A DNA stretch of 64,000 nucleotides from an uncultured Gammaproteobacteria bacterium (GTDB lineage: Bacteria > Patescibacteriota > Patescibacteriia > UBA9934 > CAZDDW01): NCBI GenBank assembly GCA_964504365.1, contig CAZDDW010000004.1, forward strand, positions 14,214-78,213, read 5' to 3'. The stretch's first letter is position 1. Each line of letters opens with the position of its first letter. A program made the translations under genes and the position numbers. The notes under the pieces are model-generated. The model did not search any database, was not told where the DNA came from, and saw only the letters and a program-made list of their open reading frames with translations. This document shows positions 6,679 through 42,244 of the stretch, one piece after another.

Positions 6679-6716
6679 ACTATAAATTAATAAATAGATA
6701 ATTAATTAATTCAACT

Positions 6717-7121: not shown

Positions 7122-7183
7122 TCGATATTTCGGAAAAGAAAAGGGCGCACCGCGTGCAATCGCGATGCGCCTTTTGAGTTGCC

Positions 7184-7858: not shown

Positions 7859-7860
7859 TT

Positions 7861-8502: not shown

Positions 8503-8660
8503 TGTCTTTCCTCTCCCGACATAAAGTCGATTTGTCCGTAAGTCTGTTGGTTTAGTTCTGAAAAGTTCACTATTTTATTTCTTTTTTGACGCTTAAATAT
8601 AGCACGTTTTTGGCTTTTTGTCAACCAGAATAGGCTTATTTTATGTATATTTAAGCTTAG

Positions 8661-8732
8661 GGGGTAGAAAGTAGAAGGTTAATAGTAGAAAGAGTCTGAA
8701 TCTTTCTACCTTCTACTTTCTCCTTTCTACTA
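8661..8732. repeat. cluster of 8-mer GTAGAA(A/G)G repeats (3 forward, 3 inverted copies) forming a complex palindrome in the AT-rich spacer inside island 1
   Basis: ggtagaaagtagaagg...tagtagaaagag...tctttctaccttctactttctcctttctac. Confidence 0.6.
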
Positions 8733-8740
8733 AAGTAAAA

Positions 8741-8781
8741 GACGGCCACCAGATGGTGACCGCCGTTGAGCGTATACGAGT
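8741..8781 (-). terminator. intrinsic terminator after the 856-aa ORF
   Basis: minus-strand ACGGCGGTCACCAtcTGGTGGCCGT hairpin followed by CTTTTACTTT directly after stop. Confidence 0.5.
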
Positions 8782-19204: not shown

Positions 19205-20344
19205 TTATTGCTTGATCGGCATGACTATATACTGATAACCCTCAACATCTTTTGGACTAACCAAGCACGGATTTGATCCATCAATTGATCGGAACAAAAC
19301 CTGATCCGTAGACATGGCATTCAAACCATCTAAGAAATATCGATAATTAACTGTTATCGTGTTTTCATTTCCAGTTACATCAGCACTACAGTTTGCTGTA
19401 TTTTCACCACGTGTCGCATCAACCGCAGTGACCACCAGCTGTTTACCAGCAGGATCAACTCGCAAGGTCACATCAAACAAACCGGTTCGTGAGAACAAAC
19501 TTGCTGTCTTTACAGACTTAATCAGATCAGCTCGATTTAATACAGCTTCTGATTGAAAATCTTTTGGGATGATCTGAGCGTAGTCTGGATATTCACCTTC
19601 GATTGTTCGAGAAGTTAGTTCTACTGACCCAAAAGTAAAGACCACTTGATTATCAGTTAGCTGGATCTGCACTGTATCTGGTGACTCCACCCCATCTTTA
19701 AACAACGATAATGTTCTAGCAACCTCTCCTAGTGCCCGAGCTGGAATAATCACATCAAACGGCTCTTCGGCTGAGCCCTGACCTAAAGTAACAGTACTCT
19801 CGGCTAATCGATAACTATCTGTTGCCGCTAAAGTTAAATTATTCTTTCCAGCAGCTGGATTATGGAACCTCATAGAAACACCAGCAAGCTCAGGGCGTGA
19901 CTCGTTGCTAGCAACCGCAAATAAAACCTGGCTCAGGGCCATACGGAGAGCCTCAGCAGGCACTGAGTATGAACGACCTCCTGAAACTGGGGGTACCAAA
20001 GGGAACTCTGAAGCAGCCATTCCTTTTATTTTGGTTTTGTTTCCTCCACACTCAATTTGCAATACATCCCCCTCAATCAATAATTCAACATTCTCGTTAG
20101 GTAGCAGGGCCACATAATCAAAGAATAATTTTGATGGTATTGTAAATTCCCCCTCTTCTTCCACTTTTCCTCGCACCAGACAAGAGGTGGCTGTTTCTAG
20201 GTTCGTGGTTGTCATTCTCATTGAACCACCTTCTGTCTTCATCAGAACATTGTTTAATATTGGAAGGTTTACATTCTTACCAGCCAGGCTACTTGTGATG
20301 GCTAATCCTTGGTGCAAGTTATCTCGTGTACAGGATAGTTTCAT
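19205..20344 (-). CDS. dnaN: DNA polymerase III beta subunit (sliding clamp)
   Basis: MKLSCTRDNLHQGLAITSSLAGKNVNLPILNNVLMKTEGG... three-domain clamp length 379 aa; immediately downstream of dnaA. Confidence 0.9.
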   Translation of the reverse strand: MKLSCTRDNLHQGLAITSSLAGKNVNLPILNNVLMKTEGGSMRMTTTNLETATSCLVRGKVEEEGEFTIPSKLFFDYVALLPNENVELLIEGDVLQIECGGNKTKIKGMAASEFPLVPPVSGGRSYSVPAEALRMALSQVLFAVASNESRPELAGVSMRFHNPAAGKNNLTLAATDSYRLAESTVTLGQGSAEEPFDVIIPARALGEVARTLSLFKDGVESPDTVQIQLTDNQVVFTFGSVELTSRTIEGEYPDYAQIIPKDFQSEAVLNRADLIKSVKTASLFSRTGLFDVTLRVDPAGKQLVVTAVDATRGENTANCSADVTGNENTITVNYRYFLDGLNAMSTDQVLFRSIDGSNPCLVSPKDVEGYQYIVMPIKQ

Positions 20345-20599
20345 AGTTAGTAAGTAATTTATATATTTTTATAGTTGTAATAGTAGGGCCTGTGGACGGA
20401 GTTGATAAGTCGGAAAAAAGGCTCAAGTAATAGACGAATTATAAGTGGTCAATGTGGGTTACTTGTTTTTCAAACATGGTGAAATCTGTGTATGAATTTT
20501 GGGTGATATTTTTTGATAATATTATTGACATTGTTCCCTCTTTTTTCACACAACCCTATCCCCTGCCCATCATTCACTTACACACATTCTTTCGACAAT
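20345..20599. promoter_or_regulatory. dnaA-dnaN intergenic region with AT-rich stretch and degenerate DnaA-box-like 9-mers (possible second oriC half / DUE)
   Basis: taatttatatatttttatagttgtaatag AT tract; cctGTGGAcgg, gTTGATAAg, TTATaAgtg. Confidence 0.35.
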
Positions 20600-21970
20600 C
20601 TATGCAGCGTACAAACGTTGTTTGATCAGTTCCAGATCATGTTGTAACTTTTCATCTTCAGTAAGAATGTTAGAAATTTTGTCGTAAGCATGCATGGCTG
20701 TTGTATGATCACGTCCACCAAGCTCCTGTCCGATCTGCGGATAAGAACTCTTCATTTCTTCACGCATGATATACATAATAATCTGTCGTGGAAAAGCCAG
20801 TCTTTTTTCTCGACTCTTGCTAAGCACCTCATCAATAGCAATGTCATAATATGCAGCCACGGTTTGTATCAGTTGTTTTGGGGTAACGTTCTTACGATTC
20901 CGTGATGGTTGGAAACTAGCCAACATTGGTTTTACTGTTTCAATTGTTGGATCAATATTTTTGAACTGATGGAAAGCAATGATTTTATTTAAGGCACCCT
21001 CAAGCTCTCGGATATTTGACTGAACAACCGTGGCCATGTGGTGCAGAATTTCTCTGTCTAATAAATAGCTTTTATCTCTACTTTTAGCCTCAAGAATAGC
21101 AATTCTTGTTTCAAAATCAGGGGTTCCAATGTCAGTCATCATGCCCCACTCAAAACGTGACAATAAACGATTCTCAAGTGCAGGAATAGCTTTTGGCGGA
21201 CGATCTGAGGAAAGAACAATTTGCTTGTTTTCTTGGTGCAGGGCATTAAAGGTATGAAAGAATTCTTCCTGTGTTCCCTCTTTTCCAGTAAGAAACTGAA
21301 TGTCATCAACTAAAAGAATGTCTACGTTTCGATAGACATCCTTAAATTCCTTGGCGTGTCCTGTGCGCACAGCGTGAATAAAATCATTAGTGAATTTTTC
21401 ACAGGTAACATACAAAACACGGGTATTTGGATTTTGTTTGACTCGCTGGTGTCCAATAGCTTGTAGTAGATGGGTTTTTCCAAGCCCTACCCCACCATAA
21501 ATAAAGAGAGGATTGTATACATCGCCTGGTTGAGCAGAAACAGCCTGGGCAGCAGCATGGGCCAATTCGTTTTGTTTTCCAACAACAAACGAACTAAAAA
21601 TGTATTTTGGATTTAAAGAGACATCTTCATTGTTTTTGGTTGATGTTCCTTCGTTATTATCAACAAAACTAACTGGTTCAAAGGTTTCTTCTTCACTTGG
21701 AATAACTTGCGGGGCAGATTGTCTAGTTTCAACACGATAGATTACGGCTTTGACAGGAGTGTTGGCTAGATTCTGTAAAGAAACAAGAATGTCTTTGTGA
21801 TATTTCTTTTCTAACCAGGCTTTGGTAAAAGTATTAGGGACACCGACGGCTATTTCACCACCGTCCAACGATACAATAAAAGTATTTTTAAACCAGGTAG
21901 TAAAATTTGCTTTGCTTAGCTTCAATTCAAGCTCTCCAAGAGCAGCTTGCCAAAGTTCGTCGGTGTTCAT
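20600..21970 (-). CDS. dnaA: chromosomal replication initiator protein DnaA
   Basis: Walker A GGVGLGKTHLL, AAA+ box, C-terminal DNA-binding domain ...ISNILTEDEKLQHDLELI; 456 aa. Confidence 0.95.
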   Translation of the reverse strand: MNTDELWQAALGELELKLSKANFTTWFKNTFIVSLDGGEIAVGVPNTFTKAWLEKKYHKDILVSLQNLANTPVKAVIYRVETRQSAPQVIPSEEETFEPVSFVDNNEGTSTKNNEDVSLNPKYIFSSFVVGKQNELAHAAAQAVSAQPGDVYNPLFIYGGVGLGKTHLLQAIGHQRVKQNPNTRVLYVTCEKFTNDFIHAVRTGHAKEFKDVYRNVDILLVDDIQFLTGKEGTQEEFFHTFNALHQENKQIVLSSDRPPKAIPALENRLLSRFEWGMMTDIGTPDFETRIAILEAKSRDKSYLLDREILHHMATVVQSNIRELEGALNKIIAFHQFKNIDPTIETVKPMLASFQPSRNRKNVTPKQLIQTVAAYYDIAIDEVLSKSREKRLAFPRQIIMYIMREEMKSSYPQIGQELGGRDHTTAMHAYDKISNILTEDEKLQHDLELIKQRLYAA

Positions 21971-22151
21971 AATATTTTTGTTTTAATTCATTTTTCTATC
22001 TCAGTCACTATATACTAAATATCCACATGTGGGCAAGTGGGTGGATAGTGGGAATTTAGGTTGATTTTTTGGGGATAGTGTGTGTATAATGGGGCTCATT
22101 ACCTGATGGGTATGGCCAATCACTTTCATAAGAGCTAAAATATAGACACCT
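21971..22151. promoter_or_regulatory. putative oriC / dnaA promoter region with convergent DnaA-box-like motifs
   Basis: atATCCACA (22019-22027) and gGGTGGATAg (rc cTATCCACC, 22041-22050), ggGGATAGtg (22071-22080) between divergent dnaA and rpmH. Confidence 0.55.
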
Positions 22152-22307
22152 ATGCCAAAGAGAACATATCAACCTAAGAAGAGACGCAGTGTAAAGGTGC
22201 ACGGATTTCGTAAAAGAATGTCGACTAAAAGTGGACAAAATGTCATTAAGAGTCGTCGTGCTAAAGGACGAAAAAAACTCACTGTTTCCTTAAAAGGTAA
22301 AAAATAA
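22152..22307 (+). CDS. rpmH: 50S ribosomal protein L34 (not in ORF track: 51 aa)
   Basis: translation [51 protein letters not shown] matches L34 consensus; immediately upstream of rnpA. Confidence 0.85.
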
Positions 22308-22318
22308 GCCCAGGAGCT

Positions 22319-22660
22319 ATGCTCCCTCGTGAAAATAGGCTAAAAAGAGATAAAGATTTCCAGGCCCTGTTCAAAAAAGGACAGGGCACTTTTGGTTCTG
22401 TTTGTGGGGCTAAATGGCAAAAAAATGGCTTAGATAAGGTTCGAATTGCCGTTGTGGTTGGAACCAAAGTGTCAAAGAAGGCCGTGGCTCGCAATCGGTT
22501 GCGTCGGCAGATTCGGGAGGTTATTAGGCTTAAACTAGACCAATTTAAGCCCGGCTATGATTTAGTGATAATTGTTAATAAGCAGGCCTTGGATAAAAAG
22601 CAAGAAGAACTAGCCAAAGAAACGCTAAAGTTACTTAAAAAGACCCCTGTTTTTAAGTAA
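22319..22660 (+). CDS. rnpA: ribonuclease P protein component
   Basis: MLPRENRLKRDKDFQALFKKG... basic 113-aa protein with RNR-like motif region, canonical position after rpmH. Confidence 0.9.
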   Translation: MLPRENRLKRDKDFQALFKKGQGTFGSVCGAKWQKNGLDKVRIAVVVGTKVSKKAVARNRLRRQIREVIRLKLDQFKPGYDLVIIVNKQALDKKQEELAKETLKLLKKTPVFK

Positions 22661-23063: not shown

Positions 23064-23327
23064 TTAATTATCAATTTTTAAAATATCACGGACTTGGTCT
23101 TCGGGCAGGTCAATTTTTATTTGTTTGACTCGGCCGGTTAGGCCCCTGTTAATTTGAATCAACGTTTTGGCCACTCCAAGCTTTTTGGACAGAAAGTCGA
23201 TTATGGTTTTGTTGGCCCTTCCTTCTGTTGCTGGTGCAGCAATTCTCATTTTTAGATTAGTTTTATCAATCCACTTAACAATTTTATTCTGTTTGGCATT
23301 CGGTTGTACATGAACAGTTATTGTCAT
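23064..23327 (-). CDS. DUF167/YggU-family protein
   Basis: 87 aa; ...KIVKWIDKTNLKMRIAAPATEGRANKTIIDFLSKKLGV... matches UPF0235 (YggU) pattern. Confidence 0.7.
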   Translation of the reverse strand: MTITVHVQPNAKQNKIVKWIDKTNLKMRIAAPATEGRANKTIIDFLSKKLGVAKTLIQINRGLTGRVKQIKIDLPEDQVRDILKIDN

Positions 23328-24160
23328 ACACGGAGGCCTTTTAATGCCTTCAGGTCCTTGGTAATTTTCCCGGCGGCATGCGGGGTTTCCAGGATCATGT
23401 CAATGTTCTTTAATTTTGGATGTTTGACAATGGCCTTGAATCCTTTTCTACCAATTTTTCCTTTACCAATATTTTCGTGACGATCCTTGTGAGAACCAAG
23501 ATCAGACATTGAATCGTTGGCATGGATTACTACCAAGTGTTTGAGACCAACTATTTTAGCAAACTCTTTTAAAGTTTTATCAACCGAAGCTTTGTCACGC
23601 AGATCATATCCAGACGCAAAGGAGTGCTGGGTGTCCAGACAAACTCCAATTTCCTTGCCTCGCTTTGCGCCCTTAATAAAAGTTGCAATCTCTTCGAATG
23701 TATCGCCCATAACCATACCAGCGCCAGCAGAGTTTTCAATTAGGAGCTGAGTAGATCCAGAGTAGCCATTCATAATTTTGTTTAGACCCTCAATAACAAA
23801 AGCCTCGGCCTGCTCTTGGTTAACATCGCGAGCGCTGCCGATATGAAACATTAGGGCCTTGGCTCCAAGCAAACTGGCTCGTTCCAAGTCCTCACGAACC
23901 ACTCGGGCTGTAGAAGAACGAATCGATTTTTTTGAAGAGGCCAGATTTAAATAATATGGCGCGTGTACATAAACACGAGCCATATTATTTTTTTTCTTTT
24001 CTTGTTTAAATTTAGCCAAGATTTCATCAGTCAGCTTTGATGCCGGTCCGCCCTGTGGTGAACGAGTGAAGATTTGGAAAACCTCGCAACCAATCTCAGC
24101 CGCGTTAGCTGGGGCATTGAACACCCCACCAGCAATTGATACGTGAGCTCCAAATAACAT
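23324..24160 (-). CDS. nfo: endonuclease IV (AP endonuclease family 2)
   Basis: MLFGAHVSIAGG...; His/Asp/Glu metal-ligand pattern of the xylose-isomerase-like TIM barrel (HAPYYLNLAS, VIHANDS). Confidence 0.9.
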   Translation of the reverse strand: MLFGAHVSIAGGVFNAPANAAEIGCEVFQIFTRSPQGGPASKLTDEILAKFKQEKKKNNMARVYVHAPYYLNLASSKKSIRSSTARVVREDLERASLLGAKALMFHIGSARDVNQEQAEAFVIEGLNKIMNGYSGSTQLLIENSAGAGMVMGDTFEEIATFIKGAKRGKEIGVCLDTQHSFASGYDLRDKASVDKTLKEFAKIVGLKHLVVIHANDSMSDLGSHKDRHENIGKGKIGRKGFKAIVKHPKLKNIDMILETPHAAGKITKDLKALKGLRV

Positions 24161-25454: not shown

Positions 25455-25512
25455 AATAGGTTTAAAAAATTAGGTTATGGGCCGAGTTTAATGTAATTTT
25501 AGCAAGATGTCA
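25455..25512 (-). promoter_or_regulatory. promoter for tig: TTGACA-N17-TAAACT fused to upstream terminator T-tract
   Basis: minus strand ...tctttttaTTGACAtcttgctaaaattacatTAAACTcggcc...ATG. Confidence 0.5.
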
Positions 25513-25519
25513 ATAAAAA

Positions 25520-25545
25520 GACCCCTGATACAACAGTGTCAGGGG
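25520..25545 (-). terminator. intrinsic terminator after DGQHR gene (CCCCTGA/TCAGGGG stem + TCTTTTTATT)
   Basis: minus strand cccctcaCCCCTGAcactgttgtaTCAGGGGtctttttattgaca. Confidence 0.7.
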
Positions 25546-25559
25546 TGAGGGGTTGGAGG

Positions 25560-26732
25560 TCAGGGCACGAGAGAAGTGGCCTGCAAAGGCGGTTCTTCCG
25601 GCGTGGCCTGGTTGTCTTCCGGTTTGCTTTCGGGGTCGCCGGGGTAGGTCGCTTCCTCAGGGGCTGGTCGAGAAGAGACCTCGACCTTCCAGAGGTAGTC
25701 ATCCAGTCGCAGAGACAGTGTCCCTGGATTCACAGATGCTGGGTCAGCACGAGTGACCCACTGGAACTTCTTGCCCAAGCTAAGGACTCGCTCCATGTTT
25801 TCTCGGCTGTGATCACGTCCGATCATGCCTGAGAAACGCGGCTGTCGAGACAGCAGGACTAGCAACGTGTCGATTCCGAGGGGTCGGGCCAGCGGGTGTC
25901 CGTCTCGTGTCCAGAAGGCAGGCCAGACCGCAGCCGCGGCCACGAAGAAGTTGACGATGATCTCCACCTGCTCTTCGATCGAGTACCCATGCAAGGAGCT
26001 GGTCTTGCCAACCGCTTGCTTGATGTACTGGAACAAAGACATCAGGTTGTGCCTGTCTCTGGGAAGGCGTCCACGAGTTGCCTGGTCGAAGAAGATCTTG
26101 TTGAGCAGAGGGGAACGCGGGTCCCGGTTCAGCTCAAGAGCGGCCAGGTAGGCTGCTTTCTCAGCGCGATTCTTGAAGCGGTCCACACGGTGAGCCTGAG
26201 CCAGACGAAGTCGTGGGTCAAGCTTCTTGCGCTTGCCCTGCTGGCCGAAGATGGCGATCCGTTGCTTTACCGGCAGGTTCACTGTGGTGGTCACTGGAAA
26301 GGACCAACGACCACGCTGTTCACCATCGAGCATCTCACAGGCAGCCAGTCGATGCTGGCCGTCGTCCACGAGCATGCAGCAGGCGTCCATCAGTTTTTCC
26401 GGATCGTCCTCAACCATGCCGGTCAGGGTGTGGCGCACCTCGTCGTATTCCCAACTGTGAACATCGTCGCCAGAACGCACATCTCCAAGGATGGAATCGA
26501 GCATGACCCCGCCCTCTTCCTTTTCCATGTGCAAGGCAATGCCGATGGCGTGATTGTTGGTCAGAGCCCTGTTCACACCTTCCGGGTGTTCGCCAAAGCG
26601 CAGGACAACAGCGATCTTCATCAAGAGCTCAGCTGAGAGCACGAAGGTGTAAAGGACGGTCTCCTTCTGCATGAACCGAGTAACGTTTGGAATTTCCACT
26701 TTTTGAAGGGCCATGTTTCCTCCCAACAGCAC
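25560..26732 (-). CDS. DGQHR-motif (DndB-like) protein, GC-rich island 2
   Basis: motif LVDDGQHRLAA (the DGQHR signature of DndB/DpdB-like ParB-fold proteins); about 58% GC DNA; 390 aa with acidic/Pro-rich C-terminal tail. Confidence 0.7.
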   Translation of the reverse strand: MLLGGNMALQKVEIPNVTRFMQKETVLYTFVLSAELLMKIAVVLRFGEHPEGVNRALTNNHAIGIALHMEKEEGGVMLDSILGDVRSGDDVHSWEYDEVRHTLTGMVEDDPEKLMDACCMLVDDGQHRLAACEMLDGEQRGRWSFPVTTTVNLPVKQRIAIFGQQGKRKKLDPRLRLAQAHRVDRFKNRAEKAAYLAALELNRDPRSPLLNKIFFDQATRGRLPRDRHNLMSLFQYIKQAVGKTSSLHGYSIEEQVEIIVNFFVAAAAVWPAFWTRDGHPLARPLGIDTLLVLLSRQPRFSGMIGRDHSRENMERVLSLGKKFQWVTRADPASVNPGTLSLRLDDYLWKVEVSSRPAPEEATYPGDPESKPEDNQATPEEPPLQATSLVP

Positions 26733-26790
26733 CGGGCATCACCAGCGTGCCCACACTGAAGAGAATTAACTTAACAGAATAAGCTTATCC

Positions 26791-26830
26791 TGTCAAGTAA
26801 CTGTATAAAAAAAGACCCGAGATTCGGGTC
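26791..26830 (-). terminator. terminator hairpin GACCCGA/TCGGGTC + T7, followed by TTGACA-N17-TAAGTT promoter for the DGQHR gene
   Basis: minus strand ccacttGACCCGAatcTCGGGTCtttttttatacagttacTTGACAggataagcttattctgtTAAGTT. Confidence 0.55.
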
Positions 26831-27203
26831 AAGTGGAATTATCCTGTTGATCAAGGAACTGACGAAGACTGGCTTCATCAGAATGGTCTTGACGTAGCCG
26901 GTCAAGGAAGGAGCCCAGAGTATCGCCTTGCTTGGCGGTCTGTTGGTAAACTTCCAGTATACGAGGCAGGTGACGCTGCAAATCTCCAAGCGGCAGAAGC
27001 TTCTTGGGCTCTGGTTTGCCAACATCCAAAGCTCTTCGCACTTTGGCTGCGAGCCGCTTTTTTATCTCAGGCAGGCGGTCAAGGATTTCCAAAGTACTTT
27101 TGTCGTCCTTGTCCAGGAATTGGCAAAAGGTTCCAGGCTTTCCCGCATCTACCCAGTCTTCGAAAGATTGTTCGATGCGGGGTATGATCAGGTCAGCTAA
27201 CAA
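26829..27203 (-). CDS. hypothetical protein (124 aa), island 2
   Basis: GC-rich ORF, 11 nt downstream of previous ORF stop; no recognisable domain. Confidence 0.4.
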   Translation of the reverse strand: MLADLIIPRIEQSFEDWVDAGKPGTFCQFLDKDDKSTLEILDRLPEIKKRLAAKVRRALDVGKPEPKKLLPLGDLQRHLPRILEVYQQTAKQGDTLGSFLDRLRQDHSDEASLRQFLDQQDNST

Positions 27204-27213
27204 ATTCCACCTC

Positions 27214-27822
27214 TCAGGAGTCCAGCCAGGCCCTGAGCTCGGCTTCGGTTGGGTGGTCTGTGGCTATACGACTGAGGTAATTGTCGAAGCTTTCGTCAGG
27301 AGTTGCCTCTTCGGTGAACCTTGTTGTGATTTGTCCCAGATACTGCTGAAGCACACTGCTTGGAAGTTGTTCTGCTGCTGCCGGCTTTTCCGCAGGCATA
27401 CCACTTGAAGCAACGGTTCCAGGGCTGAGAATACCATCGACCTGCAGCTCCAGGCCGCTACTGTCGGTTTCTTTGATTCGGCCGGTAAGACCATGCTCAT
27501 CGAAACCAAGCACCGTTGACACCCGACCTGCTCCACGTATCTCCTGGTCATCGAACTTGATCCCCTTGATCAAGACACAGCCGCCACTGACCCCTTGGTC
27601 AAGTGCAACAACCAAGAACAGGAACGAGTTTCGCGAACGAGCTACGTACACCTCACCAGGTCGCATTTCCAGCACTGGTTTGTAGATACCAGTGTCGTTA
27701 TCGCTTCGGCGATAAGGAACGGTCTGGGTAATGGTCACCATTCGCCCGTCAGGCAAGGAAAGGGTCAGTCCACGCAAGGTTGTTACCAACTCTTGTACGT
27801 CTTGGGTAAAGATCGAGGTCAT
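27214..27822 (-). CDS. hypothetical protein (202 aa), island 2
   Basis: GC-rich ORF with own TTGACA-N17-TATGGT promoter downstream of helicase terminator; no recognisable domain. Confidence 0.45.
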   Translation of the reverse strand: MTSIFTQDVQELVTTLRGLTLSLPDGRMVTITQTVPYRRSDNDTGIYKPVLEMRPGEVYVARSRNSFLFLVVALDQGVSGGCVLIKGIKFDDQEIRGAGRVSTVLGFDEHGLTGRIKETDSSGLELQVDGILSPGTVASSGMPAEKPAAAEQLPSSVLQQYLGQITTRFTEEATPDESFDNYLSRIATDHPTEAELRAWLDS

Positions 27823-27925
27823 GACTTCATCTCCTTTATGAAGGTAATTACCATATCAGACAACAAAGAGGCTGTCAAACCATATCGTTTGTGTTTACTT
27901 ATTAAAAAAGAGGCACTCAAGTGCC

Positions 27926-30900
27926 TCAAGTTGTTAGAGCAATTGCCCCACGGCTGGCCAGCTTTTGCAAAGTGCGCCAATCATGAGCAAAAAGGTCTAG
28001 TGCAGCCTGGTCTGGCGTCAAAGGTCCTGTGTCCGGACGAGCACCCCATCGTTGGAATTCTCTAAGGATGGTCCTTTTAACTGCCTCGTTATCCAAGACA
28101 GTGCCAGATCGACTGGCTAGCGGGTTGACCACTTCGAAGTCGTTATAGACAACTGTGCTTTGGTTACCAGGCTCAGGTCCTTTTCCTTTGCCGTTACGAA
28201 CGTTGATGTTTCGGGCAAGCTCAAAGGTAAAACGGAAAGCCTCATGGTCTGTAAACCGCGGCTTGTTTCCGTTTAGCGAGAACAGAATGGACCAGAAAGC
28301 AAACTTGGGCTTTGTTTTGTGGCCCTCTCCCTTTGGTACGATCAGACCAGAAAGAGGTAGTACATCACAACCCTCGCTGCGTAAGGCACTTACCCAACAC
28401 TCATAAAGCGTTTCATCAAGAGCCTGTCGGTTAAAGGTCAACCAGATCAAGCCGTATGATTCAGTAACGCGGACGAGTTCACGTAGAATCCGAATGCGCT
28501 CTGGCTCTTGTTGGTCTGCTTCCAGATTGGTCCAATCAATAGCCAAAGAACTTACAGTCAATCGGAACCTGTCTGTCCAATCACTGGGTAGCTGAGAAAG
28601 GCGTCCAACCTCAGCATTAGTGCCTTGGTGTGGGGAAAGGGTTCTGCCAAGATCAACGATCGTTGGGTTGATGTCAATCCCGTAGATCGGTTGGTCAAGG
28701 TAGCGTTCCATGGTCAATGGGCCACAGCCAGCATCAAAGATCAGTTCTGGGCGATCCAGGATCCCTGCTGGGATCAATCCACTGGTTAGCGACCGGGTCA
28801 TGAAACGGGCTATGTGCCCGGAAGCTCCAAAGTCCTGAACTTGGACAAAGCTTCTGGCAAATATCTCCGCATTGGTCCGTATGCCAAACTCGGTTGACAG
28901 TCGACGAATGACGCCGTCCTCACCAGCACCGCGCATGTCAGAGGCGATGAGGTTGACATGGTCGGTTGGAGAGCGGGTTAGGCGCTTTAGTCGAGTACTG
29001 TTGGGAGTAGTGTATTCGTTCCACTCCTCTTCAGTCGGTGGAACACGAGCCCTGAAACGAACCAAGTGTTCCCACTTGCGCTTGACCAGCTCATAGCGAC
29101 TCTCATCAGCAGTATCAACAATGTTGTCGTCTCCGACAAGCACTAGTGACAAGTACTCCACAGGCACAGTCAGACCTTCTCTCCAGAAACGACCAAGGAA
29201 CTGTTTCCAAGGCAACCATCCCTGGGCATAGGCGATCACCTTTACCCCTTGGACAGTTGGGTCGTTTCTGACCAGGACAGACAGGTTGATGCTGTCCGGA
29301 CAGGTCTTCATAGAAACCAGCAGGATCCTGGCACGTGGGTCAGTTCGCCAGCGAGCGATCAAAGAATCTCTCGCGTGACTACCAACGCCAACACTGCCAT
29401 CGAGCAACAAAACAGCTTCGTCGCCGTACCACTCCTTCAAGAGCTTGCCAACCCACACCCCGTCATCATCACCTTTGTAGGGCTGGGTTACCCCCTGGAC
29501 ATAAACGCCGGTAGCAACCACCACCTTATGGTTGTGGAGGCATTCGTCTAGCTGTCTTTTTAGCCAGACAAGCTTGGTTGACAGTCGCCAGTCGCTGAAA
29601 CGCTCAGCCATCTCGTCAGGCCAGTCGTAGGCAGTGTTTCCAGTCAGCACGTGCGGCATGTCCGCTGCATGAAGCAGGTGACGCACCTTGGCACTGGCAT
29701 CGATTCCAATTCCGTTACCATTTCCATTCTCTTGCTCAAGGTCAGGTTCGTGATCCTGAACAAAGCGGTACAACTCAGCATGATCCGGATTCATTTCAAG
29801 TGGCACTGGCCCGAACAGGTCCTCCCACGGCTGTGGGTTGATTGTTGGCAGGTCGCGCACCTCTTGAAGTTCTATGTCCAGGATACAGGTCCCGAAGATG
29901 GCTCGGAGCAAGCGGGGGCTGGCAAACACACCAGAACTGACAAACCGTTCTGGGTCTGGGAACAGGTCTGGTCTCAAGATCGTGGCCAAAGCAGCGCACT
30001 CAACAGGAGAATTCTCCCAAGGAGTTACTGAAAGGGCCAAAACCTTTTTCAGACGTGCCTCAGCACCCTTAATGATCGTCAGACAAGCAAGGGCTCGTTG
30101 TGCCGCGCTTTTTCCAAGGACATTTTTTCCGTATTGACACTCATCCCAAATCACACCATCGAAAGCCAGTTTGCTAAGAGCACTGACAATTTCAGGCCTG
30201 GTAAGGTTTGAATAGCCAACAACGATAAATCTGGCATTCCTTGGAATAAAGGCAACATCACGAATGCCTCGAATTACATGTACCACACCAGGCCGCCTAG
30301 CCCAGGGGAAGTAAATCTTTAGCTCGTTTTCCCAGTTGTCTCGAGCGCCAGGCGCACAAAAGACCAGGGTCTGTTGACAGCCAGCCTGAAGAACGTCAAG
30401 GGCCGCGTAACTGGTTTTGTACGTACCAGTATCTCCAATGTTGAGAACTCGCGACTCGTCTTTGGAACGAGCCAGCCACCAGCGCACATGAAGAGCTGGG
30501 AACATCCGGCTGTTGATCGTTTCGATCGTGTCCGGATAGGTCGTGGTCAAAAGGGCTTCGATGCGTTCGTGAGCGATTTGCCACACCTTACGTTCGTAGT
30601 CGTTGTTTGCTGCGGCCCGCTCTTCTCTTACGAAGTCATGGCCCAAATCAACGTCACGACTGAACCAGTAAAGCAACTCGCGTATACGACAATCAACATC
30701 CAGATCCAGAACCTCGGTTGGAATTCCTTTGATGATTTCCGGGTCGATCACTACCTTGGCGCCTGAATCGGTGCGGTTGGTGTTGAGTGGTCGTACCGTA
30801 ACCACACCCAGATTGGCCCGAAGTTTCATGTCTGCTTGGAGCTTGAGCACCAGGCGCGTCATCCATTCCACGTCTCCGTAGAAGAATTCAGGACAAACAC

Positions 30901-31147
30901 GGACAATCGCGTGAGCCAGGGCTTCGGGGAATGCTTCGAACCGTTCCCAGATAAAACGAAGTAAATCGTTTTTGTTGATTTGCTCAGCAAACAACGACGA
31001 CTTGTTTTCTACAACCTCAGCCAAACACTGATCAAGGTCCTTATCAGTCAGGTCACCACGTTGGTGGAGGAAGCGCAGGAATTCGTACTTCTTCTCGTTC
31101 TCTGGCATTTTGGCTAGCAGCGATACTATTTGTTGATGACTAAGCAT
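27926..31147 (-). CDS. SNF2-family helicase/ATPase fused to C-terminal class-I SAM-dependent methyltransferase domain, island 2
   Basis: helicase motifs IGDTGTYKT (I), VIWDECQYGKN (II), ALSVTPWEN (III), LLVSMKTCPDSINL and QGWLPWKQFLGRFWREG (V/VI); MTase motif I LIFDAGCGPL and IYGIDINP; start set at ATG 31147 (GGAGAGG SD) since the ORF-track GTG at 31240 lies inside the terminator/-35 element. Confidence 0.7.
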   Translation of the reverse strand: MLSHQQIVSLLAKMPENEKKYEFLRFLHQRGDLTDKDLDQCLAEVVENKSSLFAEQINKNDLLRFIWERFEAFPEALAHAIVRVCPEFFYGDVEWMTRLVLKLQADMKLRANLGVVTVRPLNTNRTDSGAKVVIDPEIIKGIPTEVLDLDVDCRIRELLYWFSRDVDLGHDFVREERAAANNDYERKVWQIAHERIEALLTTTYPDTIETINSRMFPALHVRWWLARSKDESRVLNIGDTGTYKTSYAALDVLQAGCQQTLVFCAPGARDNWENELKIYFPWARRPGVVHVIRGIRDVAFIPRNARFIVVGYSNLTRPEIVSALSKLAFDGVIWDECQYGKNVLGKSAAQRALACLTIIKGAEARLKKVLALSVTPWENSPVECAALATILRPDLFPDPERFVSSGVFASPRLLRAIFGTCILDIELQEVRDLPTINPQPWEDLFGPVPLEMNPDHAELYRFVQDHEPDLEQENGNGNGIGIDASAKVRHLLHAADMPHVLTGNTAYDWPDEMAERFSDWRLSTKLVWLKRQLDECLHNHKVVVATGVYVQGVTQPYKGDDDGVWVGKLLKEWYGDEAVLLLDGSVGVGSHARDSLIARWRTDPRARILLVSMKTCPDSINLSVLVRNDPTVQGVKVIAYAQGWLPWKQFLGRFWREGLTVPVEYLSLVLVGDDNIVDTADESRYELVKRKWEHLVRFRARVPPTEEEWNEYTTPNSTRLKRLTRSPTDHVNLIASDMRGAGEDGVIRRLSTEFGIRTNAEIFARSFVQVQDFGASGHIARFMTRSLTSGLIPAGILDRPELIFDAGCGPLTMERYLDQPIYGIDINPTIVDLGRTLSPHQGTNAEVGRLSQLPSDWTDRFRLTVSSLAIDWTNLEADQQEPERIRILRELVRVTESYGLIWLTFNRQALDETLYECWVSALRSEGCDVLPLSGLIVPKGEGHKTKPKFAFWSILFSLNGNKPRFTDHEAFRFTFELARNINVRNGKGKGPEPGNQSTVVYNDFEVVNPLASRSGTVLDNEAVKRTILREFQRWGARPDTGPLTPDQAALDLFAHDWRTLQKLASRGAIALTT

Positions 31148-31224
31148 CAAACCTCTCCGTTCCTTGTATTGCACAAGAAAATATTGAAAAGACCAAGGGA
31201 CCTTTTTAACAGATATAAGCCAAA

Positions 31225-31258
31225 TTGTCAATAAAAACACCCATCCAAGTGGATGGGT
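31225..31258 (-). terminator. intrinsic terminator after sigma-factor gene (ACCCATCC/GGATGGGT + GTTTTTATTGACAA)
   Basis: minus strand ctctaaACCCATCCacttGGATGGGTgtttttattgacaa. Confidence 0.65.
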
Positions 31259-32527
31259 TTAGAGTTCTGTTTCTTGGTTGACAATGGTGTGCAGGTCGCT
31301 GAACCACTGGCCTGGTGGCGCAACCTGATCATCGAGCTCGATTATTGCTTGGCCTCCACCATTGCAATAACTGAATCGGCAGAATTGAGCAGCTCCTGTC
31401 ACCAGTATGGTTTTTTCTTCTTTGTCTATCTTATCAGAGAACAGTAGTCCACAAGCAACTAGTTTCTGATAAAAAGCTTGACCCAGTTGATCCCTGATAC
31501 CAGATACACCATATTCGGCATCGGCTACATGCAATAGTGTTGCGGCTTGAGCGAGGCTGACAGAAATCTCCCAGAACACGGGTGCAGACCCGTTATTTTC
31601 TAGAGGCCGCCTGTCAACGTCTTGTATATCATCCAACTCATCTAGGCTGTTGGCACCTAAGTCAACCAACGCCTGTTTCATTTTATCTTTGGCTCTGATT
31701 TCGAGCTGTCTTATTCTTTCGCGACTGATACCTAGAGATTTTCCAAGTACTCGTAGCGACACTTTTTGCTCTAGGTAGCGGTGCTCAATAATGAAGCGTT
31801 CTCTTTCACTCAAGACGCCCAAAGCCAGTTCGGCTAATGCACGTTGATGCTCATTTTCCCGTGTAGAATCAACAGAATCTTCAGGTGAAGGGGTGTCTTC
31901 ATCTTCCAGCAGATCGATGAACATTACCTCAGAGTCATCCGAGGCTTTGTTGTGCAACGAAAGATCCTGGCCACTTAGACGCATGTCCATTTCGCGCACT
32001 ACTTTTTCATCTACACCGAGCTCGACGGCTATCAAAGACAGGCGCTCGTCTCCTGTTAGATCCAGATTTTTGTACTCTACCTTAGCCCGGGCTCGTCCGA
32101 GCCCACTGAAAACCTTTCTCTGTTTTTGGGTGGTTCCCATGCGGACTTGAGATCGGCTTCTGAGAATGAATTCCTTTATTTCGGCCTTCATCCAGTACTT
32201 GGCGTAGCCCAAGAACCTGACACCGCGGTCTGGATCAAAGCGCGTAATGGCTCGACATATACCAATCAAGGCCTGTTGAAGCAGTTCTTCCGCAGGAACA
32301 TGCCTGTTTGCATAACGCTTTGATAATTTAACAGCGTATTTGATATTTGCATCAACCAGGGCTGAGACAGCCTCTTTGTCTCCTGATTTGGCCAGGGCAA
32401 CCAGATCAAGTTCTTCATTTCGTTTAAGAATACGTACGGTTGGATTGCTAAGGTGCTTTGTTATGATCGGGGACAGGTCTGGTCTTTTGACATAACCCAA
32501 TCTATTCTCCCTTTCAGGTCGGAGCAT
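31259..32527 (-). CDS. sigma-70 family RNA polymerase sigma factor, RpoH (sigma-32)-like, with about 130-aa C-terminal extension of unknown function
   Basis: region 2 FLGYAKYWMKAEIKEFILRSR; RpoH-box-like MGTTQKQRKVFSGLGRA; region 4.2 HTH LGISRERIRQLEIRAKDKM; GC-rich. Confidence 0.75.
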   Translation of the reverse strand: MLRPERENRLGYVKRPDLSPIITKHLSNPTVRILKRNEELDLVALAKSGDKEAVSALVDANIKYAVKLSKRYANRHVPAEELLQQALIGICRAITRFDPDRGVRFLGYAKYWMKAEIKEFILRSRSQVRMGTTQKQRKVFSGLGRARAKVEYKNLDLTGDERLSLIAVELGVDEKVVREMDMRLSGQDLSLHNKASDDSEVMFIDLLEDEDTPSPEDSVDSTRENEHQRALAELALGVLSERERFIIEHRYLEQKVSLRVLGKSLGISRERIRQLEIRAKDKMKQALVDLGANSLDELDDIQDVDRRPLENNGSAPVFWEISVSLAQAATLLHVADAEYGVSGIRDQLGQAFYQKLVACGLLFSDKIDKEEKTILVTGAAQFCRFSYCNGGGQAIIELDDQVAPPGQWFSDLHTIVNQETEL

Positions 32528-38701: not shown

Positions 38702-39805
38702 TTAACTGGTCAGAAGACAGCGGAACGGCTCGTCTTCTCCCAGGCGTGGTGGGTGTATGGCCGCTCCTTCACTAGACAGGACCCAGCGAGCACCCATTCG
38801 ATGTGAGACCCCCATGCTGGTGTATGCTGGCCGTTGGCGTTGGTGTACCTCAAGCATGGGCAGGAAGTTGAAGATCTCAATGTTGATCTGGGCGCTGGTC
38901 TTCTTGTCGCGCAACCGGTCATGGACACTGTCCCAGATCACTGTGGGAATACGCAACTGCCAGGCCCCGAGCAGGCGACGCTCTCTACGGTCCATTCCCT
39001 TGAGAACATCTTTCTGCTCTCCGGGGAACAGGTAGGCCATTTCTCCGGTCCGGCGACCGTTCATTGGTTTTTTCCCTGGTGCGTATGTCTCGATGAACGA
39101 GCCAGGAACCAAGTTCAGCTCCCTGGTGTGCTGCCTGTTGGCTGCCACGTGGAGCGGAATACCGCCAGGCAGGTCGAACTTGGCCAGGATGTCAGCCCCA
39201 TGACTGGAAAGCAGGACATCATCAGCACCAACGCTACCCGGACGGTTGTAGTCGGATCTGAAACGCTGAAGGATCGTTGGGTAGTACTTGAGGAGGAATT
39301 CCGTTTGTGCGTACAACCACGGCACGCGTTCAAGAATTTCGGGCTTGTCCGGGGTTATACCCTCTTCTCTGTACTCGATATGGTCGAAGAGAACACGGGT
39401 TTCTTCGACCCGCATGATCCACTCAAGCAGGATCCAGGTGTAGTCCGCGTTGGGTATGACTATAGTCAGAGGTGTGGTCTGTTCGATCGGCACGGTTTCG
39501 CCGGTGAACAAGAAGTTCGGTTCCCGTAGGGAGCGCAAGAGCTCTTCGACCGCCGTCTGCTGCCCATCTCGATGCAGCTTGGCCAGCATGGTCAACAGAA
39601 CCCGGCCGTCACTTACCAGTTTGTCCCAGCGTCGCAAAGCTTCGCTGGGCGAGCCGGTTTGCTCAAGCAAGAACTTGTACAAACCAACCAGACCTCTGGC
39701 ACGGCCCCGCAACCGGGCAAACACCTGGTTCCCAACCAGCTGTTCGCGCAACGCGGCGATTTGGGTTTCTCTTAAAAGGGCTTCGTTGTTCTTGTCTTCA
39801 GGCAC
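38702..39805 (-). CDS. hypothetical protein (367 aa), GC-rich island 3
   Basis: long ORF in about 57% GC DNA; no recognisable domain. Confidence 0.45.
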   Translation of the reverse strand: MPEDKNNEALLRETQIAALREQLVGNQVFARLRGRARGLVGLYKFLLEQTGSPSEALRRWDKLVSDGRVLLTMLAKLHRDGQQTAVEELLRSLREPNFLFTGETVPIEQTTPLTIVIPNADYTWILLEWIMRVEETRVLFDHIEYREEGITPDKPEILERVPWLYAQTEFLLKYYPTILQRFRSDYNRPGSVGADDVLLSSHGADILAKFDLPGGIPLHVAANRQHTRELNLVPGSFIETYAPGKKPMNGRRTGEMAYLFPGEQKDVLKGMDRRERRLLGAWQLRIPTVIWDSVHDRLRDKKTSAQINIEIFNFLPMLEVHQRQRPAYTSMGVSHRMGARWVLSSEGAAIHPPRLGEDEPFRCLLTS

Positions 39806-39918
39806 TGCTCTTCTCCTTGAGCCATCTGAAGCAGTATCTCCTGGGAGGTACCAAGGTTCGGTCAGCGACCGGTTGTCTCCTGGGAGGCAACGTATCGATC
39901 TTGCCGGAAAATGTTAGA

Positions 39919-39959
39919 TTTGTCAATAAAAAGACCCGACAACAAGTGTCGGGCGAGGT
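39919..39959 (-). terminator. terminator/-35 cassette copy A (CCCGACA/TGTCGGG hairpin + TCTTTTTATTGACAA)
   Basis: ttgtcaataaaaagacccgacaacaagtgtcgggcgaggtt; 40/41 identical to 41166-41206. Confidence 0.7.
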
Positions 39960-39966
39960 TGTTCGA

Positions 39967-41034
39967 TCAGCCGGTGGCAGCTGCGGGCTTGCGTCGGATT
40001 TTGATCAGACGGCTTCGATCCAGTCCGTGAAGTTCCGGGTCGGTCTCTCCGCGGTTGAACCGCTCTAGCACGAGCACCAGCTCGTCGTGTAGCCTTTTGT
40101 CGCGCTGAGATGTCTTGAACTCCGGGCCGAGATAGGCGACCAATTCCTTGATCACGGATTGCAGGAAGCTGGCCCGGTCCACTTCCTTGCCCCACTCAGT
40201 GTCTGCGTGTTCGGTCTGTTTGGTGAACAGGTCGACCAGGTCGCCGTGGGGTCGTAGTCGGACGATCTCTTCGAGCAGATCAAGTCCGTTGGAAGAGATG
40301 CCACCTTCGCCCAAGATCTCCCGGGCGCCACTGTCAGAGACCAGCCAGAACTGCATCCGCATCTGGTCCATGCTCACTTCACGATCGCGAGTGATCTCCA
40401 GATGCCAGCCCATGTTGCCGAGCTCTCGTCCCAACGAGAGTTTTTGTTCCCAGCGTTGGAATGGACAAGCCGGGAAGCGAGAGAGTTCGGTTGTTCCTTC
40501 GGGCGTATTCTCGATCACGTCCAGGCACATCAGGAGCTGTTCGTTCTCTTTCATGCGCACGAGCATATAGGTTTGGTGTCTTAGAACCCAGACCTCTTTC
40601 ACTCGGACGATAGCCAGGATCAGGCGAGCCACCAAGGCGAGACCGATCAGAGCACAGACAAGGATCTGTCGGTACTGATCTACGTTCGGTCCTAGGGTCA
40701 ACGGTTCCGTGATGGCATAAAAACACCAAGCAAGACCAAAAGCCAGAAGTGCGAAGGCCACCACCATGCCAATAAAGATCGTTAGCATGAAGAGTACGAC
40801 GCACATCCACTGGATCCAGAAGAGGAACCCCTTGACCTTTTTGGAAAAGGCCTGGATCCACTTTGGGGAATCCGAGGTGTCCCAGTCGATCCTCTTGATC
40901 GGGTTGGCTCGGCGAAGCCCGCGGACAAGCTTGACCGCACCTCGCCAAAGGGTTTGCTCGAAGCCGAAAGCGATCCAGAAGACCAGTCGCTCCGGCAGGA
41001 GGGAGATGAACTCCCAGGAAAAGAACCACCGCAT
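39967..41034 (-). CDS. hypothetical membrane protein (355 aa; 2-3 TM + cytoplasmic domain), GC-rich island 3
   Basis: ORF with own TTGACA-N17-TAATCT promoter; TM segments FLFWIQWMCVVLFMLTIFIGMVVAFALLAFGLAW; no recognisable domain. Confidence 0.45.
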   Translation of the reverse strand: MRWFFSWEFISLLPERLVFWIAFGFEQTLWRGAVKLVRGLRRANPIKRIDWDTSDSPKWIQAFSKKVKGFLFWIQWMCVVLFMLTIFIGMVVAFALLAFGLAWCFYAITEPLTLGPNVDQYRQILVCALIGLALVARLILAIVRVKEVWVLRHQTYMLVRMKENEQLLMCLDVIENTPEGTTELSRFPACPFQRWEQKLSLGRELGNMGWHLEITRDREVSMDQMRMQFWLVSDSGAREILGEGGISSNGLDLLEEIVRLRPHGDLVDLFTKQTEHADTEWGKEVDRASFLQSVIKELVAYLGPEFKTSQRDKRLHDELVLVLERFNRGETDPELHGLDRSRLIKIRRKPAAATG

Positions 41035-41165
41035 GATTTACCTCCAAGGCCACGCAGTCTCGCCACCAAGCACCCGTTCGGGCATCACCAACACGAACTA
41101 CCGTGCGGATCTAGCTTAGACTTGACTGAAATCATGGAGGGTTAGATTATCATCGTGCCCACGGC

Positions 41166-41206
41166 TTGTCAATAAAAAGACCCGACAACAAGTGTCGGGT
41201 GAGGTG
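41166..41206 (-). terminator. terminator/-35 cassette copy B, then -10 TAATCT 17 nt downstream of TTGACA
   Basis: ttgtcaataaaaagacccgacaacaagtgtcgggtgaggtg; minus strand ...tctttttaTTGACAagccgtgggcacgatgaTAATCT. Confidence 0.7.
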
Positions 41207-42244
41207 TTAGGACCAGTGCCGCTCTGGTACGTAGAACTGCATCAGTTCCTCGATGATTTTTGGGTCACTATCGATGATTTCCAGGCCACGCTGACTTGGA
41301 AATTCCTGGTGGGCTTTTTGGAAGGCCTGGATGACCCGTTCGGGTGTGGGTTCACCACCAGGCCAGCATAGTTGGTTGTGGACTCTGAAAAGCCGGAACT
41401 CAGGGTGCTCGCCCCGGTCGACATGCACGTAGTGGCCAGCCGCCAATCGTTTCAGCTCCTCGTTGGTTGCTCCAGGGATGTGCCAGTAGAGGTTGCTTGA
41501 CCAGTAGGCTGCTTGTCCCAGCCTGCCGTGGGCCCACTCAGGCACCGGGTCTCCCCCTGCGAATAGTGGTTTGAATCCATGAAAGCGCAGGAACCATTCG
41601 ATTGGCGAGGGCCAGTACCGAAGGGCAGGGCCAGTACCACTGTTTGGGATTGGGGTGAAATCATTCCAGTAAGGGGTGAAACGGAAACTGTGGATTGCTG
41701 CCGCACCAAGGACCAGGCTGGTCGGGTAGGCGTCATGGGCAATGCTCCACAAAATCAGTCGCGGTGGATGTTTCTGGTCAAGGGTGTTACGCACCGGCTG
41801 GTTGAGAAGAGCTCTCCCAGCTCTGGTTTGGTCGTGTGGAAGGGGCAGGGTGATGACGATCCGCCCTTCTACGATTTCCAAGAGGTCATTGTCTCTGAGG
41901 CGTCCAATCCATTTGCGGAACATGTCCAGCTGAGGGTGTTCTCCGATTGGGCACGATGCTGATTCCCGAATCCAGGTATCCGGATCGAGTTGAAGGATGT
42001 CGTTGAGCACGATCTGAAACCCAGTCACCTTGTCCGGGCAAACGTGAATGACTCGGCGCAGTCCGGCAAGCCAGTCAGCAAACACGGTCGTGTCACCGGC
42101 CTCAGCCCTCGGGACCACTTGGTTGTTCCACATGTCATTGAACAGCTTGTTGAGGTGGTCAAGGCCGCGCTCGGCAGCGCGCATGATTTTACGATCGAAA
42201 CTACGTAGATTACTTCGATCCCATTTGTCACTTTGTCTACTCAT
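41207..42244 (-). CDS. hypothetical protein (345 aa), GC-rich island 3
   Basis: ORF in about 57% GC DNA, Trp/His-rich; no recognisable domain. Confidence 0.45.
   Translation of the reverse strand: MSRQSDKWDRSNLRSFDRKIMRAAERGLDHLNKLFNDMWNNQVVPRAEAGDTTVFADWLAGLRRVIHVCPDKVTGFQIVLNDILQLDPDTWIRESASCPIGEHPQLDMFRKWIGRLRDNDLLEIVEGRIVITLPLPHDQTRAGRALLNQPVRNTLDQKHPPRLILWSIAHDAYPTSLVLGAAAIHSFRFTPYWNDFTPIPNSGTGPALRYWPSPIEWFLRFHGFKPLFAGGDPVPEWAHGRLGQAAYWSSNLYWHIPGATNEELKRLAAGHYVHVDRGEHPEFRLFRVHNQLCWPGGEPTPERVIQAFQKAHQEFPSQRGLEIIDSDPKIIEELMQFYVPERHWS

Follow-up and report, generated by a model that had tools for sequence, protein, structure and literature searches.

A probable gene module of Patescibacteria joining a SNF2-methyltransferase fusion, a protein of DNA glycosylase fold and a shared tail domain

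Which genes of a GC-rich patch in the genome of a member of the Candidate Phyla Radiation (CPR, or Patescibacteria) belong together, and what might they do? CPR bacteria have very small genomes in which few defence systems have been recognised and many proteins lack an assigned function. The patch lies in a 64,000-nucleotide stretch of contig CAZDDW010000004.1 (assembly GCA_964504365.1, positions 14,214 to 78,213), which we call the window and to which positions refer unless another locus is named. Its genes have their nearest relatives in genomes annotated as Candidatus Uhrbacteria or Parcubacteria, that is, CPR. The original prediction described five co-directional open reading frames (ORFs) on the minus strand: a DGQHR-domain gene, two small ORFans, a fusion of a SNF2 helicase with a methyltransferase (MTase), and an RpoH-like sigma factor. 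Gene calls and homologue N-termini fix the boundaries of these five genes in agreement with that description. What they form is a different matter. We are confident that a redefined module exists, consisting of the SNF2-MTase fusion, a partner with the base-flipping fold of the alkyladenine DNA glycosylase AAG (also called MPG) and a protein carrying a small tail domain, with the DGQHR gene as a clade-specific add-on.

The fusion gene (27926-31147, minus strand; 1073 aa) has its start at 31147 backed by a JGI gene call and by homologue N-termini. It encodes a helical N-terminal region (residues 1 to ~214; nucleotides 31147-30506), the SNF2 ATPase lobes (~215-700; 30505-29048), a class-I S-adenosylmethionine (SAM) MTase domain (~795-960; 28765-28268) and a further ~110 residues at the C-terminus, all on the minus strand. 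Both domain assignments stand as originally proposed, although they became secure only with family profiles and structure models. The SNF2 part has motifs I, II (DExx), III and VI and a two-lobe fold with SNF2 inserts, as befits a SWI2/SNF2 ATPase, with GDTGTYKT at residue 238, DECQ at 335, SVTP at 373 and QFLGRFWREG at 649. The MTase part, with DAGCG at residue 805 and GIDIN at 823, has the GxGxG-type loop of motif I, an acidic residue ending beta-2 and a match to the Methyltransf_11/25 domain model above cut-off. The family conserves the four helicase motifs named above as well as the motifs for SAM binding; in its tight form it comprises 42 full-length homologue clusters at 90% identity. 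An exhaustive profile search extended it to 168 clusters at E<=1e-30, and all eight wider-family members that were sampled carry SNF2 and Methyltransf_11 (780-1566 aa), one of them from Roizmanbacteria. Judged by these profiles, the fusion is broader than the window's clade, yet unannotated.

To place the fusion in its surroundings, 19 species-representative genome loci were compared, together with three further tight-family contigs and seven contigs from six distant SNF2::MTase lineages (cited below by L numbers). The gene that follows the fusion, orf202 (27214-27822, minus strand; 202 aa), had been taken for an ORFan, as had the next one, orf124; both in fact belong to conserved families. 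Single-sequence searches with orf202 gave nothing useful, and only family-level analysis revealed an AAG fold (PF02245, Pur_DNA_glyco) in residues 1 to ~135 (27822-27418, minus strand). A disordered linker leads from there to a helical domain at residues ~152-202 (27369-27217, minus strand). Among the related tight-family loci, 19 have DNA downstream of the fusion, and in 18 of these an orf202 homologue comes next, whatever genes flank the pair. The exception, L022, carries a SNF2-only truncation without the MTase. The same pair recurs in three of the six distant lineages sampled (L028, E 7e-17; L034, E 4e-19; L032, E 5e-6), and the L034 partner also has a Pfam match to PF02245.

A few loci depart from this arrangement in their own ways. 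At L022 (8015-11520) the SNF2 part alone (707 aa) is followed by a DUF4379 zinc-ribbon repeat protein. L015 (7635-9045) has a 132-aa AAG-like ORF with no tail-domain match, and then a related 285-aa protein with a weak tail match at its N-terminus. In L029 (6670-19273) and L030, a divergent SNF2-MTase (P0197) sits amid five HNH_repeat genes, recognised by faint Pfam matches. Its neighbourhood also holds a small ORF of 126 aa, a DUF4143 AAA ATPase and an AbiEii toxin but lacks an AAG-like gene.

At the C-terminus of orf202, ~50 residues make up a helical domain of their own, the tail, which ties a second protein to the fusion. A hidden Markov model (HMM) built from orf202-family tails alone matches the C-terminal ~50 residues (~26981-26838) of orf124 (26829-27203, minus strand; 124 aa, TTG start), a small helical protein, with an E-value of 2.4e-10. 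It also matches proteins of about 125 aa that are encoded next to the fusion in at least 12 loci (L006-8, L011, L012, L014, L017, L020, L021, L023, L025 and L027). The tail occurs further on proteins with HNH-associated repeats (PF18780) in L006-L008, at the N-terminus of the DUF4379 zinc-ribbon (treble-clef; PF14311) repeat protein of L022, and in two larger proteins of L019. Overall, the matches range from E 1e-14 to 1e-5 and span at least four different architectures, all encoded beside the fusion. Among close relatives the number and type of additional tail-bearing paralogues vary, from none in the window and L020 to one in L006 and L007 and three in L008. We rejected assignment of the tail to a known family, given that it has no Pfam or PDB match and only a sub-threshold match to DUF3323 (E 0.016). 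What holds the module together is adjacency, to which the tight family adds the shared tail domain.

Does the DGQHR gene (25560-26714, minus strand; 384 aa) belong to this module as well? Its identity as a DGQHR-domain protein of the ParB/DndB superfamily is well supported: it contains LVDDGQHRLAA and scores 76.8 bits with NCBIfam TIGR03187 against a cut-off of 58.85. It falls short of the DndB-specific models, scoring 25.2 against 29.1 bits with Pfam PF14072 and 30.7 against 450 bits with TIGR04172. Orthologues were found only in the window's own Uhrbacteria clade (L006, L007, L008 and L020, or five of five syntenic genomes with the window included), where they are co-oriented with the module and always sit between the small tail protein and tig. 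The gene is absent from all 21 loci scanned in other, more distant lineages (11 genome loci and 10 contigs), and a metagenome scan for the DGQHR subfamily returned a single 1.4-kb contig. Being restricted to one clade and missing from every distant locus scanned, the DGQHR protein is not the core component it had been taken for. We regard its gene as a clade-specific neighbour, possibly an accessory or a regulator.

The transcription signals bear on the same question. Terminator-like hairpins follow hppA, the sigma gene, the fusion (27927-27910, minus strand) and orf124, and sigma-70-type promoters precede the sigma gene and orf202, the latter at 27878-27850 on the minus strand. After the sigma gene a hairpin runs directly into TTGACA (31221-31258, minus strand), probably the promoter of the fusion, a layout also seen in relatives. 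The claim that each gene has a terminator and promoter of its own was nearly right. The exception is that orf124 starts 10 nucleotides past the stop codon of orf202, a spacing that places the two in one transcription unit. The predicted units are therefore the sigma gene, the fusion, orf202-orf124 and the DGQHR gene. A recurring junction was also noted at 25503-25529, 26802-26823 and 31221-31247, where a hairpin and T-run are followed immediately by TTGACA (or TATACA). One gene's terminator thus abuts the next gene's -35 element, and the same layout lies upstream of orthologues in relatives.

The DGQHR promoter (26769-26798, minus strand) reads TTGACA-N17-TAAGTT, in a layout kept in five genomes and with the conserved form TTGACA-N17-TA(A/G)GTT in relatives. 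Its spacer is a 20-nucleotide dyad, ACA-N14-TGT, in which nine of ten positions pair in the window and eight of ten in L006 (~7806-7835). The inner sequence differs between these two, and L020, L007 and L008 have a weaker dyad. The dyad may be an autoregulatory operator. A conserved operator was rejected, the dyad being convincing in only two of the five genomes.

These signals allow a reading in which the DGQHR protein is an independent, origin-proximal member of the ParB/DndB superfamily, a DNA-binding regulator or partition-related factor that merely neighbours the module. In all five genomes its gene has its own promoter and terminator and lies about 100-150 nucleotides from the preceding gene; it is missing from every module found at another site; and it lies close to dnaA (dnaN, dnaA and rnpA occupy 19205-22660, ~3-4 kb from the DGQHR gene, which makes the module origin-proximal in the window's clade). 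The dyad would suit autoregulation, and DndB reportedly acts as a regulator of transcription, according to work cited in PMC10853773. Against independence, the gene shares the module's unusual base composition in several genomes and always adjoins the small tail protein, and its protein is no canonical ParB, with matches only to the generic TIGR03187. We consider full independence unlikely, albeit deserving of attention.

A second reading starts from the original prediction. According to this model, a GC-rich island arrived by horizontal transfer, and its DGQHR protein, its SNF2-MTase and a sigma factor dedicated to them act jointly as a new modification-restriction system resembling Dnd or Dpd. 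There is some ground for the comparison. The DGQHR domain is real, and a DGQHR protein with a SNF2-type helicase as neighbour recalls the 7-deazaguanine DNA modification and restriction cluster Dpd (DpdA TGT, the DGQHR/ParB-like DpdB, and the helicases DpdE and DpdJ) and the phosphorothioation system Dnd (DndB). PADLOC also finds weak DpdE similarity confined to the SNF2 core (E 3e-3 in the window, 8.9e-10 at best in the family). However, no DpdA/TGT, DpdC or DndACDE accompanies the genes, and in most lineages the module does without the DGQHR protein. The original prediction had already noted that canonical partners are missing; precomputed Pfam annotation confirms that DndA, DndC, DndD, DndE and TGT are absent within 10 kb on either side, and PADLOC detected no dndA/C/D/E or dndFGH among the island ORFs or ten other large ORFs of the window.

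Base composition was among the reasons given for speaking of an island. From the DGQHR gene to the fusion the GC content is 52.6%, compared with 43.6 +/- 3.4% for the background of 500-nucleotide windows. By gene, the values are 57.7% for DGQHR, 50.1% for orf124, 53.5% for orf202 and 51.7% for SNF2-MTase, with 41.5% for tig and 46.7% for hppA in the flanks. The excess of the four genes resides at synonymous sites, and their GC content at third codon positions (GC3) is 0.50-0.68 against a background of 0.32-0.47. The compositional patch is consequently real, but only the DGQHR gene reaches the 57-60% GC that had been given for it. Nor does the patch extend across 25560-32527, as had been proposed; it ends at about 31150 and leaves out the sigma gene, whose host-like composition (47.0% GC, GC3 0.44) is indistinguishable from that of hppA. 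In syntenic relatives (L005, L006, L007 and L008) the module genes likewise stand about 8-10 GC points above their flanks. The offset is a persistent, so far unexplained property of these genes and not a sign of recent transfer.

Three more GC3-rich patches occur in the window, at 7184-11352, 38702-42244 and 52069-53316 (GC3 0.62-0.84). No Pfam match was obtained for their ORFs (213-856 aa), nor did any of the seven that were scanned with PADLOC match. It seems that 'islands' of GC-rich, lineage-specific genes are typical of the window genome at large. A GC-rich patch in a CPR genome, we caution, need not mean recent horizontal transfer. Elsewhere in the window, an 891-aa ORF (55748-58423) matches the PADLOC model 'RTasPolA' (E 1e-42) and is most likely just DNA polymerase I.

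Gene order tells against acquisition as well. The conserved order is hppA, a slot of changing content, the fusion, orf202, variable tail proteins, orf124, DGQHR and tig, continuing to rnpA and dnaA. Identities to syntenic relatives are 49-50% for SNF2-MTase, 47-48% for tig, 66-70% for dnaA and ~75% for hppA. The conserved hppA...tig...dnaA synteny and these identity levels point to vertical inheritance and contradict the proposed joint acquisition of the genes. No convincing flanking repeats, integrase or adjacent tRNA were found at the module, and PHROGs yielded nothing beyond a generic DNA-helicase family for the SNF2 part and sigma-factor families. Recent horizontal acquisition, whether by a mobile element or a prophage, was rejected on these grounds. 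Six loci (L005, L014, L016, L018, L021 and L023) have a CPR-type module and Uhrbacteria-like flanks, yet are titled 'uncultured Gammaproteobacteria' or 'Saccharibacteria'; they are probably mislabelled bins.

The sigma gene (31259-32527, minus strand; 422 aa) fares no better as a member. The protein is RpoH-like, as predicted, with regions 2 and 4 present, and it contains QRKVFSGL, which we take to be a partial RpoH-box-like motif. It stays below the RpoH equivalog cut-offs (204.3 against 323.1 bits for TIGR02392; 204.6 against 241 bits for NF005143), and its 130-aa C-terminal extension gave no match, no PDB match and no tail domain. In all seven close relatives with DNA covering the slot between hppA and the fusion, that slot is occupied by a non-homologous protein of ~610-765 aa (fam3), and among the compared loci only the window genome has a sigma gene there. 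With replacement in seven of seven relatives and host composition, the sigma factor cannot be counted as part of the module, and we judge it an unrelated neighbour. Moreover, all module promoters are ordinary, of sigma-70 type, and nothing in them points to a need for a sigma factor of their own.

Other lineages have different large ORFans in that slot (fam7 and fam36). A common origin of fam3, fam7 and fam36 was rejected, with hhalign probabilities below 1% and no Pfam, PHROG or PDB matches. Two fam7 paralogues (52-1974 and 6446-8278) flank the module in L014, and a C-terminal stretch of ~50 residues that fam7 conserves recurs in 450-aa neighbours in L013 and L016.

Taken as a whole, the acquired-island model is very improbable. 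In its favour there remain the shared GC3 offset of the DGQHR and SNF2-MTase genes, in the window and in relatives, and their constant adjacency within the clade. The sigma factor and the recent acquisition, two of its parts, are largely refuted.

If the module is neither Dnd nor Dpd, what does it resemble? As the original prediction held, the region cannot be mapped to a described system: PADLOC gave no system-specific match. Membership of Dnd, Dpd, DISARM, BREX, Zorya or MADS was rejected, PADLOC similarity being confined to generic SNF2 matches. Our literature searches likewise retrieved no description of a module of SNF2-MTase, AAG-fold and tail-domain proteins. The module is covered by neither PADLOC, Pfam architecture annotation nor the literature searched.

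The nearest described architecture is the DarB-type dyad of a DNA adenine methylase and a SWI2/SNF2 helicase, found in phages, plasmids and conjugative elements (Iyer et al. 2017, PMC5512222), for which methylation while tracking along DNA has been proposed (PMC5512222). Both unite a SAM methyltransferase and a SNF2-clade translocase in one polypeptide. Here, however, the domain order is reversed, with SNF2 N-terminal and the MTase C-terminal, and the MTase is of the Methyltransf_11/25 type without (D/N/S)PP(Y/F/W). The context is chromosomal, syntenic and CPR-restricted rather than a mobile element, and AAG-fold and tail-domain partners are present.

Like the module, DISARM (with the SNF2 helicase DrmD and the methyltransferase DrmMI) and BREX pair a motor ATPase with a methyltransferase and have no recognisable nuclease as an obligatory part. 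Both discriminate self from non-self by modification, which is the likeness we propose. Unlike DISARM, the module has no DrmA (DUF1998 helicase), DrmB or DrmC, and its DrmD matches are weak, generic and limited to three of 24 members (best E 6.5e-5). Unlike BREX, it lacks PglX, PglZ and BrxC, with a single PADLOC match to the helicase BrxHII in one of 24 members. The MTase is of a different class from those of either system, neither of which is known to have AAG-fold or tail-domain partners. The SNF2 helicases of Zorya (ZorD) and MADS (mad2) differ in that the fusion has a C-terminal MTase in place of an Mrr-like nuclease domain; ZorABC and MADS partners are missing too.

We tentatively favour the view, to which we give a little less than even credence, that the module is a CPR-restricted, vertically inherited machine of defence type that tracks along DNA to modify or recognise it. 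The tail would be a docking module that joins interchangeable DNA-reader subunits to the motor. Driven by ATP, the motor would track along DNA as the MTase domain methylates its target, most likely a purine ring position and not an exocyclic amino group. The AAG-fold subunit would flip out and inspect purines and, in some orthologues that bear the glutamate discussed below, perhaps excise them. The assembly could in this way tell marked from unmarked DNA, as in defence of the BREX or DISARM type. We infer the physical docking, DNA as the methylation substrate and the role in defence. A role in conflict is favoured because of the variable tail-bearing paralogues, the ORFan neighbours, the fast evolution of the module genes (41-50% identity where hppA has 75% and dnaA 68%), the rarity of the family, and the HNH-repeat expansion and AbiEii around its divergent member.

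Several points weigh against this view. The module has no nuclease or other recognisable effector, and PADLOC sees in it generic SNF2 similarity only. Its single copy, its stable synteny beside oriC-proximal housekeeping genes and its host-type promoters fit housekeeping equally well. The DGQHR gene is tied to it only by adjacency in one syntenic clade and by the shared GC offset. The sequence of the MTase domain is of a generic Methyltransf_11/25 type, with small-molecule class-I MTases as its nearest PDB sequences, and the domain might act on RNA, protein or a small molecule. Lastly, base excision by the AAG-fold protein cannot be assumed, to judge from the residues of its presumptive active site.

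Those residues also bear on the case for repair. The general base Glu125 and the lesion-pocket residues H136, Y159 and N169 of human AAG (with the human numbering checked at seven residues) are lacking in orf202, which has Val35 at the Glu125-equivalent position. Among 20 family members that position is E in eight, D in three, Q in two, K in three, and R, V, S and T in one each; it is acidic in 11 of the 20, and the orthologues of L012 and L016 are among those that bear Glu. Unlike AAG/MPG, the family as a whole has A or P for Y159, V or I for N169, a replaced Y162 and a deleted H136 loop, and it keeps a residue set of its own (R39, N42, Y47, P49 and C82). The C-terminal tail domain and the genetic tie to SNF2-MTase set it further apart from AAG/MPG.

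A housekeeping role in DNA repair or genome maintenance would make the module a lineage-specific base-excision-repair device of reduced CPR genomes. In that case the SNF2 motor, like CSB, Mfd or RapA, would scan DNA or rescue stalled polymerases and deliver the AAG-type glycosylase to alkylated purines. CSB/Rad26 and RapA are indeed among the structural neighbours of the SNF2 part. The vertical synteny takes in tig, nfo (endonuclease IV, an apurinic/apyrimidinic endonuclease; 23324-24160), rnpA and dnaA, and the AAG fold, single copy, host-type promoters and absence of a nuclease or toxin are all as repair would have them. A role in chromatin would likewise suit the stable synteny, the promoters, the nearby nfo and the missing nuclease. 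Set against this are the catalytic Glu equivalent, missing in the window protein and in nine of 20 members, and an invariant SAM-binding MTase domain for which repair offers no role. The family is also rare, at 42 clusters; its tail-bearing accessory paralogues and ORFan neighbours differ among close relatives; and the pair of fusion and AAG-like protein appears in unrelated contexts in other lineages. We think repair improbable, though not negligible.

The MTase domain raises the question of what is methylated. A canonical DNA amino-methyltransferase (N6-A or N4-C, as in DarB, DrmMI and PglX) was rejected because motif IV of such enzymes, (D/N/S)PP(Y/F/W), is absent from 24 of 24 family sequences searched with a regular expression. 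The best structural neighbours belong to rRNA MTase families that make 1-methyladenine (m1A) or 7-methylguanine (m7G), the nearest being Rrp8/nucleomethylin and Bud23. These neighbours, and the lack of any DNA-MTase motif, would accord with a module that acts on RNA, as an Rrp8- or Bud23-like methyltransferase of rRNA or tRNA whose 'AAG-fold' partner is an RNA-binding domain like FMT-C. Yet SNF2 ATPases are translocases of double-stranded DNA, and the fold of the fusion matches DNA-bound remodellers. Pfam, moreover, places the partner in the DNA glycosylase family and not in FMT_C, and the other tail-bearing partners carry typical DNA-binding repeats (PF18780 and PF14311). Action on RNA is therefore a most unlikely reading.

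A more specific and speculative reading, which we hold to be a long shot, has DNA as the substrate. It is a writer-reader system for 'lesion-like' methylpurines, with the fusion as a DNA purine ring-nitrogen MTase (of m1A, 3-methyladenine or m7G type), the AAG-fold partner as a dedicated reader or eraser, interchangeable DNA-binding adaptors attached through the new docking domain, and the DGQHR protein as a DpdB-like ATPase cofactor in one clade. Such a system, if real, might label self DNA; alternatively, it might poison incoming DNA and turn it into abasic sites.

Should the module prove to be a defence or epigenetic system, it would represent a new motor-plus-methyltransferase logic, in which a repair-glycosylase fold serves to read the DNA, and would bring with it a small docking domain that is new. 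Should its MTase write ring-methylated purines on DNA, these CPR bacteria would harbour a new DNA chemistry.

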